From the NCBI RefSeq assembly GCF_003334815.1, contig NZ_QOWO01000022.1: a stretch of DNA of 64,000 nucleotides. One strand, given 5' to 3'. Origin of the DNA: Escherichia coli (lineage in GTDB: Bacteria > Pseudomonadota > Gammaproteobacteria > Enterobacterales > Enterobacteriaceae). This document shows, in pieces, positions 19,712-20,333 of this stretch. Position numbers and translations under genes: made by a program. How positions within the stretch are numbered: the stretch's first letter is position 1; the number at the start of each line of letters is the position of its first letter. The notes under the pieces are model-generated. The model was not told the DNA's origin. It was given only the letters and a program-made list of their open reading frames with translations, and did no database searches.

Positions 19712-20043
19712 AGTATTTCCTTCCAGGTCATTATTACTTCCGGATTTAACATGATGTCTGTAACCATAAAATAATGAACGTGTTCCGGGAATCCTTGCCG
19801 TGTAGTTTCCCGTAAAAATACTGTTGTGCATAACATGTCATTAGGTGGAAAACGATTGTGGCAGACTGAAAATCGATTAGAATAGCGGCGGGCGCTTGAG
19901 GCTGTATGCTGAAAGCGTTTTGTGGACGGCATGCAGCAGAAAGCCCCAGGCGATTTTTTTATCAATCAACCCAGGGCCCACTGTAATGCCTAGACAACAT
20001 TATAGTAGCCCGATGACGGCCGAAAGGCAATGGAGGGGCTGCG

Positions 20044-20196
20044 ATGCCACAACGAACGTTTTTAACAATGTTAATTGTCGTCTGTGTGACGATACTGTGT
20101 TTTGTCTGGATGCTGAGGGATTCGCTTTGCGGATTCCGTGTCGAGCAGGGAAACACAGTGCTTGTGGCAACGTTAGCCTACGAAGTTAAACGTTAA
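20044..20196 (+). CDS. pndA: Hok/Gef-family type I toxin (PndA-like), 50 aa
   Basis: Translation MPQRTFLTMLIVVCVTILCFVWMLRDSLCGFRVEQGNTVLVATLAYEVKR: single TM helix plus conserved Cys and LAYE. A longer overlapping ORF in another frame (19896-20189) is mok/pndC-like, as expected for hok-type loci. Below the ORF-track size cut-off. Confidence 0.75.
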   Translation: MPQRTFLTMLIVVCVTILCFVWMLRDSLCGFRVEQGNTVLVATLAYEVKR

Positions 20197-20333
20197 CGGG
20201 CAACACGGCGGCAGGAAATCTGCCGCCGGATTGTTGCGAAGGCTGACCTCAATGCGCCTTGTTTGTCTTTTTTACCGGACGACTGCTGGTTGCTGCTGTC
20301 CGGCAGCTATTATTTTTTCCGTCCTGTGCGTCA

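Follow-up and report, generated by a model that had tools for sequence, protein, structure and literature searches.

The 64-kb stretch of E. coli DNA analyzed here (referred to as the window) very probably carries an intact pnd locus (pndA, pndB, and pndC), which is a type I toxin-antitoxin cassette of the hok/sok family residing on an I-complex (IncK2/Z-type) conjugative plasmid, and the mechanism by which it would operate is taken from its homologs, namely R1 hok/sok and the pnd loci of R483 and R64. The locus is an already known one: knowledge of pnd dates back to about 1990, the locus belongs to the long-known "plasmid addiction" family, and the toxin is annotated in public records. The sequence is that of a pnd family member, and for each of the hok/sok elements a counterpart is present by sequence and predicted folding, arranged as in the family.

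The toxin gene and its ribosome-binding site are located as follows.

20044–20196, plus strand: pndA, the toxin gene (50 aa, Hok/Gef family), running from the ATG at 20044 to the TAA at 20194–20196; identified by Pfam match, identity to PndA proteins, and RefSeq annotation.
20032–20036, plus strand: Shine-Dalgarno (SD) sequence of pndA, GGAGG, 7 nt 5′ of the ATG at 20044.

The original prediction described the 50-aa protein encoded at 20044–20196 as a Hok/PndA homolog, and the protein comparisons bear this out. The product, MPQRTFLTMLIVVCVTILCFVWMLRDSLCGFRVEQGNTVLVATLAYEVKR, matches the Pfam family HOK_GEF (PF01848) with an E-value of 2.8e-11 and a score of 43.3 bits, covering positions 3–42 of the 42-position model. 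It is 94% identical to PndA of pCT and 88% identical to PndA of R64, which is also 50 aa long and differs from it at six residues, while the F Hok toxin shows 34% identity over 47 residues. In plasmids with the identical sequence, the RefSeq name of the protein is "Hok/Gef family protein" (WP_001597021.1). The scores against two NCBIfam models were under the curated cut-offs (61.6 versus 89 bits for NF007290, the HokA equivalog, and 39.5 versus 73 bits for NF007279, the Hok family toxin); PndA is, therefore, not HokA and falls outside both of these narrow models. In the MFE folds, the bases beside the pndA SD pair with bases toward the 3′ end of the coding region. No second hok-like toxin or leader was found in the 64-kb window by tblastn, blastn, or Rfam searches.

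We determined the extent of the locus by DNA alignment with R64. The span first proposed, 19880–20200, does contain the pnd locus but is too small, as the block homologous to R64 pnd extends over approximately 19849–20262 (~414 bp) and includes the fold-back element, fbi, at 20247–20258. The homology (~90–92%) sets in close to the −35 of the mRNA promoter (~19849) and ends a few bases 3′ of fbi, at ~20262, with unrelated sequence on either side. A block of the same extent is found in a third context in pEC21Z048, where it lies near a topoisomerase gene. Because the bounds of the block are the same in differing flanks, pnd is a discrete cassette of ~414 bp. At least 23 plasmids among the matches listed carry the cassette with 100% identity, and the 701 bp around pnd are 100% identical in many E. 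coli plasmids. The window as a whole is collinear with the IncK2/Z plasmid pH2332-107 (NC_025138), at 99.98–100% identity, save for one inverted segment of 962 bp.

The cassette is located between trbA and excA of the I-type transfer region, in the gene order trbA-dqlB-(~9 kb of cargo)-pnd-TnsA/sigma-like gene-excA. The dqlB/AgrB-like locus, at 9352–9803, is a second type I toxin locus in the window. The pnd cassette of the IncI1 plasmid R64 (~410 bp), which is grouped with those of R483 (IncI1) and R16 (IncB) and which we used for the sequence comparison, has a like set and order of genes and is ~90% identical in DNA. It likewise lies in the trbA-excA interval, but at another position (trbA-pnd-dqlB-excA). 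The pndACB locus of the IncK plasmid pCT (pCT_065) is closer, with 96% DNA identity over 451 bp including flanking sequence, and adjoins the same TnsA/sigma-70-like gene (pCT_066). It is the PndA identity of 88–94%, the DNA identity of 90–96%, and the trbA-excA location in an I-type transfer region that place the locus in the pnd subgroup.

The mRNA of the locus and its elements, all of them on the toxin strand, can be described as follows.

19856–19883, plus strand: putative promoter of the pndC-pndA mRNA (−35 TTGTGG at 19856–19861, 16-nt spacer, −10 TAGAAT at 19878–19883), read from the sequence.
19890–20262, plus strand: predicted full-length pnd mRNA of ~372 nt with approximate ends, the 5′ end placed from the start of the Rfam match and the −10 and the 3′ end placed where R64 homology stops, just past fbi.
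19891–19901, plus strand: tac (translational activator) box, GGCGCUUGAGG, at the 5′ end of the mRNA; unchanged in the 7 pnd alleles and identical in F flm.
19941–19947, plus strand: ucb (upstream complementary box, or anti-SD), AAGCCCC; its partner is the pndC SD in the full-length fold and tac in both the truncated fold and the Rfam structure.
19973–19976, plus strand: pndC SD, AGGG, 9 nt 5′ of the ATG at 19986; sequestered by ucb in the full-length fold.
19974–20011, plus strand: antisense target hairpin, with the stem 19980–19988/19998–20006 closed by the SD GGGC (19974–19977) and the dcb GCCC (20008–20011); from the Rfam consensus and MFE folds.
19986–20189, plus strand: pndC (mok-type) leader frame of 67 codons, with the likely start ATG at 19986; open in 7 of 7 alleles and in the register of the F mok ATG.
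20206–20228, plus strand: GC-rich 9-bp stem-loop just past the stop codon, present in all folds; presumed 3′ protector of the processed mRNA.
20247–20258, plus strand: fbi (fold-back inhibition) box, CCUCAAUGCGCC; forms 10 bp with 19891–19900 in the full-length MFE fold.

A covariance-model search, which had been put forward as a check of the locus, was carried out over the whole window and gave a match to Rfam RF01794 ("sok") at 19890–20046, with a score of 124.5 bits (gathering score, 59), an E-value of 5.6e-28, and the full model (1–157) covered. Neither this match nor the Pfam match can plausibly be put down to chance. The match lies on the toxin's own strand and ends on the toxin ATG, and RF01794 behaves alike on R64, pCT, and F flm, where it again lies on the toxin strand and ends at the toxin ATG (the F leader scores 91.8 bits). 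From this strand and end position it follows that RF01794 models the mRNA leader, that is, the antisense complement together with the tac stem, and not the antisense gene. The −10 sequence of the mRNA promoter, which lies 6–7 nt 5′ of position 19890, where the Rfam match begins, is unchanged in the window, R64, and pESBL-EA11. A scan of 19700–20400 for consensus promoters and terminators reported neither the mRNA nor the antisense promoter at its thresholds, and the −35 of each is weak; it was only inspection of the sequence, together with alignments to R64 and F, that located the two promoters.

In hok/sok, tac pairs with fbi to close the full-length mRNA while ucb masks the mok SD, and the pairs tac/ucb and SD/dcb form in the truncated, active RNA (PMC9841398). 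The predicted folds of the pnd mRNA correspond well with the closed state. The MFE fold of 19891–20262 (−158.5 kcal/mol) contains a 10-bp helix of GGCGCUUGAG (19891–19900) with 20248–20258, and in the same fold the ucb GCCC at 19943–19946 pairs with the pndC SD GGGC at 19974–19977. Leaving fbi unpaired carries a predicted penalty of 13.5 kcal/mol. Fold-back elements, on whose detection the original prediction had been made to depend, are thus present in the form of the predicted tac-fbi pairing. The Rfam consensus represents the open form, in which tac (19890–19897) pairs with ucb (19941–19947) and the SD pairs with the dcb GCCC (20008–20011). The penalty for the open form is 10.3 kcal/mol in the full-length RNA; in the RNA truncated at 20230, it is 3.6 kcal/mol relative to the closed form and 4.7 kcal/mol relative to the MFE. 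The predicted minimum of the truncated RNA is a mixed state rather than the fully open conformation. By these predictions, the closed state of the mRNA would appear well supported and the conformational switch only partly so.

Comparison of the 7 pnd alleles showed that 95.9% of cells are paired in the full-length structure, as opposed to 33–48% when the 3′ partners are slid, and the value for the 3′ stem-loop at 20206–20228 is 98.4%. No double-sided change was observed among the 124 pairs of the full-length fold in these alleles, a result like that obtained with shuffles, and the 16 further pair types in the mRNA fold are all one-sided changes from G-C or A-U to G-U. The flm locus of F cannot serve as a covariation test of tac-fbi, given that tac is identical in both and covariation is impossible, and shows only that a 3′ complement exists independently. 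Covariation is uninformative here because the pnd clade is too shallow and its members too similar, and these tests count neither for nor against the structure. What supports the structure of the pnd RNA is its thermodynamic folding predictions, the match to the Rfam model, and published studies of the family.

One could argue from the NCBIfam scores under the cut-offs and the negative promoter scan that the locus has decayed to a non-functional remnant or that pndA is a chance ORF. We consider this extremely unlikely, given the E-values of the Pfam and Rfam matches, the full-length toxin and pndC frames, the complementarity of tac and fbi, and the conservation of the sequence at 100% identity in many plasmids; at the sequence level, the E-values and intact frames effectively rule out both a chance ORF and a decayed remnant. 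True remnants look different: those of the ColIb-P9 type are truncated before the toxin, and the ORF of the L006 copy is disrupted.

The original prediction also identified a 97-aa ORF, from a TTG at 19896 to 20189 on the plus strand, as the mok/pndC-type frame overlapping the toxin. Its coordinates are correct, it is in a different frame from that of the toxin, and it does contain the mok/pndC frame, the 67 codons of which are open in all of the alleles, but the start is probably another one. Codons 1–30 of the 97-aa ORF (19896–19985) fall in the structured leader of the mRNA and run through the tac stem. The true start of pndC is probably the ATG at 19986, which follows AGGG at the distance given above and lies inside the target hairpin, and the 97-aa ORF is probably a mechanical over-extension of that frame. 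The mok ATG of F flm shares the register (ATG-C(T/C)TAGACAACAT), the mok-type frame of flm starting in the target loop. The mok frame of hok/sok must be translated for hok to be translated (PMC9841398).

The target hairpin holds the pndC start codon and has a 9-nt loop, CCUAGACAA, at 19989–19997. The loop contains a YUNR (U-turn) motif, CUAG, at 19990–19993; this target-loop motif is said to have been presented as family-defining by Franch et al. in 1999. Opposite the hairpin, on the other strand, lie the elements of the antisense gene.

19999–20030, minus strand: putative pndB promoter (−35 TTGCCT from 20030 to 20025, 17-nt spacer, −10 TACTAT from 20007 to 20002), read by inspection.
~19995 to 19937, minus strand: predicted PndB (Sok-type) antisense RNA of ~55–60 nt, with its 5′ end in 19995–19990 and its 3′ end near 19937–19941, both approximate.

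An antisense RNA had been expected within about 19.9–20.05 kb on the minus strand, and both the predicted promoter (20030–19999) and the predicted RNA lie there. A perfect TATAAT (20004 to 19999, minus strand) overlaps the −10 TACTAT, and the −10 region is unchanged in the 7 alleles. The promoter aligns with that of F flm (TTGCGC, 17 nt, TATCCT), TACTAT being at the position of TATCCT. The predicted fold of PndB consists of a 9–12-nt single-stranded 5′ tail and one long hairpin, with a free energy of −24.9 kcal/mol and a z-score of −3.6; none of 200 shuffles was as stable. The 5′ tail is complementary to the target loop and to the pndC start codon. This architecture is the same in 7 of 7 alleles despite substitutions (−24.0 to −24.9 kcal/mol). 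A single double change, from G.U to U-A, was seen in the antisense hairpin among the 7 alleles, but 143 of 500 shuffles equaled it and it is, hence, not significant. We strongly infer from the sequence and the predicted folding that an antisense gene, pndB, is present.

The mechanistic model for the window pnd comes from hok/sok of R1 (PMC9841398), and what follows on processing of the mRNA, the action of PndB, and the killing of cells is, like the ends of the transcripts, a prediction. A stable mRNA of ~372 nt would be made from a weak promoter, and in it tac would pair with fbi while ucb masks the pndC ribosome-binding site, so that, as proposed, the full-length RNA would be neither translated nor bound by the antisense RNA. 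Slow trimming from the 3′ end to the GC-rich stem-loop at 20206–20228 would take off fbi; the equivalent stem-loop of R1 shields the truncated hok mRNA from exonucleases (PMC9841398). Tac would then pair with ucb, the pndC ribosome-binding site would shift to the base of the hairpin, and the YUNR loop would be exposed. In cells that retain the plasmid, the short, unstable PndB would bind the loop by way of its single-stranded 5′ tail, which would block pndC and the translationally coupled pndA and trigger decay of the duplex. [quoted passage not shown]

The architecture of the window pnd is that of R1 hok/sok and its close homolog flm of F, a plasmid of the IncF family. The tac box of flm, GGCGCUUGAGG, is identical, flm has a 3′ fbi complement, and its antisense promoter occupies the corresponding place. 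The fbi sequences differ (CUGAAGCGCC in F as compared with CCUCAAUGCGCC in the window), and so does their register. R64 pnd and the window pnd are identical in the tac box, the antisense −10, the stem of the target hairpin, and the 3′ stem-loop. About 8 differences between them fall in the PndB region, among them those of the recognition loop (CUUCGAC in R64 versus CCUAGAC in the window).

Studies of related plasmids bear, with mixed results, on what the cassette contributes to maintenance. The pnd locus of R64 was required for maintenance according to Furuya and Komano (1996), as cited in PMC4083329. In the IncI1 plasmid pESBL, pnd contributes to post-segregational killing; deletion of pnd alone had no effect, a stability effect was seen only when par and oriT were deleted as well, and killing persisted without pnd (PMC7602700). 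Another IncI1 plasmid, pJIE512b, was cured by an interference plasmid that carried pndB but no functional pndA, neutralisation of pndBCA making the curing possible (PMC5330492). In pCT, whose pnd is the nearest relative to have been put to the test, the pndACB::aph mutation led to no change in stability, conjugation, growth, or competition, and retention of the mutant plasmid was 100% in both E. coli and Salmonella over ~80 generations (PMC4083329).

One interpretation of these results is that pnd is intact but redundant or silent in this plasmid lineage, its maintenance role being masked by partitioning, conjugative re-entry, or other toxin systems such as the dqlB/AgrB-like locus at 9352–9803. 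The stability of the knockout of a 96%-identical cassette situated beside the same TnsA/sigma-like gene (PMC4083329), the dependence of the pESBL effect on the par and oriT deletions together with the killing that remained without pnd (PMC7602700), and the presence of a second type I toxin locus within the window all lend weight to this reading, which we regard as possible but less likely than not. Each regulatory element of the cassette, however, is intact and conserved, and a whole-plasmid stability assay cannot reveal post-segregational killing because a very stable plasmid seldom yields plasmid-free cells. Moreover, the reading concerns the size of the phenotype and not the identity or the mechanism of pnd. 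We retain the view that the window carries a genuine pnd cassette with the hok/sok mechanism, and that other maintenance functions may hide what it contributes in this plasmid lineage.

The part of the target hairpin that varies is its loop. While the stem is unchanged among the 7 alleles, the loop reads CCUAGAC in the window, CCUCAAC in pCT and others (two differences from the window), and CUUCGAC in R64; YUNR is kept in all of them, as CUAG, CUCA, or UUCG. The exact 39-nt hairpin of the window is found in 257 plasmid records. In some IncI1 plasmids, a second copy of the leader, lacking the toxin, lies beside the AgrB/dqlB locus, and ~319 records, including ColIb-P9 (NC_002122), cover at least 80% of it. 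The predicted antisense 5′ tail of this remnant, GUCUAGGCAUUACAG, is that of the window allele and not that of the host plasmid's own pnd. The leader remnant lacks a −35 region. No such toxin-less copy is present in the window.

An alternative is that pnd has been selected mainly for some role other than maintenance, such as the exclusion of phages (abortive infection) or a rivalry between related plasmids that depends on allele-specific antisense recognition. R1 hok/sok reportedly excludes phage T4, variation in the otherwise unchanged hairpin is concentrated in the recognition loop, and the toxin-less remnants in ~319 IncI1 plasmids have a predicted antisense tail matching the window allele. 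We think that this is unlikely, as nothing in the window supports it directly, just three loop variants exist among the seven sequences, and expression of a remnant without a −35 region is putative. A more specific proposal, and one that we hold to be very doubtful, is that the diversification of the loop bases has created specificity groups that do not neutralise one another and that the ColIb-P9-type remnant could act as an orphan "anti-addiction" antitoxin. If this is true, then remnant-bearing IncI1 plasmids could oust plasmids that carry the pnd allele of the window.

For the window itself, the preferred reading remains that of an intact pnd cassette of the hok/sok type, and mapping of its elements is useful for annotation, given that public records mark only the 50-aa toxin and leave the antisense RNA, pndC, tac, ucb, dcb, and fbi unannotated. 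The title "sok" of RF01794, a model that matches the leader on the toxin strand, could mislead automated annotation of the antitoxin. Cassettes of the pnd type are targets for plasmid curing (PMC5330492), and the exact antisense allele of the IncK2/Z plasmids is, therefore, of some applied value.

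The 'sok antitoxin' family of Rfam, RF01794, finds a match at 19890-20046 of the window and in the comparison loci L002, L004 and L007. In all of the loci examined, the match lies on the strand of the toxin and ends at its start codon. Because of this strand and this end point, RF01794 is a model of the hok/pnd mRNA leader, and not of the gene for the antisense RNA.

As judged from its profile matches, the region from 9352 to 9803, directly downstream of trbA, is a second type I toxin-antitoxin locus in the window, of the dinQ/agrB type. Its two components are as follows.

9352-9441, minus strand: AgrB-like RNA (Rfam AgrB, 49.3 bits; gathering score 40)
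9708-9803, plus strand: dqlB open reading frame of 31 aa (NCBIfam 'DinQ-like type I toxin DqlB', 62.9 bits; cut-off 35)

The same AgrB/dqlB pair is present in R64 and in other IncI1 plasmids. In the plasmid pZ1323HSL0086-2, the pair is adjoined by a remnant of a pnd leader without a toxin (L009 1289-1467; Rfam sok, 67.5 bits), which is absent from the window. The corresponding remnant of ColIb-P9 is located at

NC_002122.1, 48472-48653: toxin-less pnd leader remnant

and approximately 319 plasmid records match the leader remnant over at least 80% of its length. The remnant retains the antisense −10 element and a PndB-like hairpin, and the −35 region is gone. Its 15-nt 5′ tail is exactly that of the PndB allele of the window, not that of the host plasmid's own allele.

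A block of cargo genes of approximately 9 kb (about 11357-19376) separates dqlB from pnd in the window and is missing from R64. In the identical plasmid pH2332-107, the block is annotated as encoding an S6-family (SPATE-type) autotransporter peptidase, a thermonuclease, a DUF2569 protein and a phosphoethanolamine transferase; the thermonuclease-family match was confirmed at 15813-16316 of the window. The gene directly upstream of pnd is

17841-19376, plus strand: phosphoethanolamine-transferase-like gene, 511 aa

The top NCBIfam match of its product is CptA, which scores 108 bits where the cut-off is 404, and MCR-4 reaches only 29 bits. Given these scores, the product is a divergent member of the phosphoethanolamine-transferase family, and the gene is not one of the recognised MCR genes for colistin resistance.

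Two other features of the window were observed. The first is

20334-21920, minus strand: gene for a 528-aa protein with a sigma-70 region-4-like helix-turn-helix (residues ~132-200) and a TnsA-endonuclease-like domain (residues ~332-440)

for which every NCBIfam match falls well under its cut-off. [quoted passage not shown] The second is a 962-bp segment (49688-50649) that is inverted relative to pH2332-107, consistent with shufflon inversion; it is flanked by a site-specific integrase (rci-type) gene and pilV.

The IncFIB plasmid p14EC047c carries a decayed pnd-like copy (L006 401-621), in which the toxin frame is disrupted. The copy is in two pieces of ~77-80% identity, and its neighbours are a transposase of the IS3 type and a gene for an autotransporter. 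It provides an example of what a true pnd remnant looks like.
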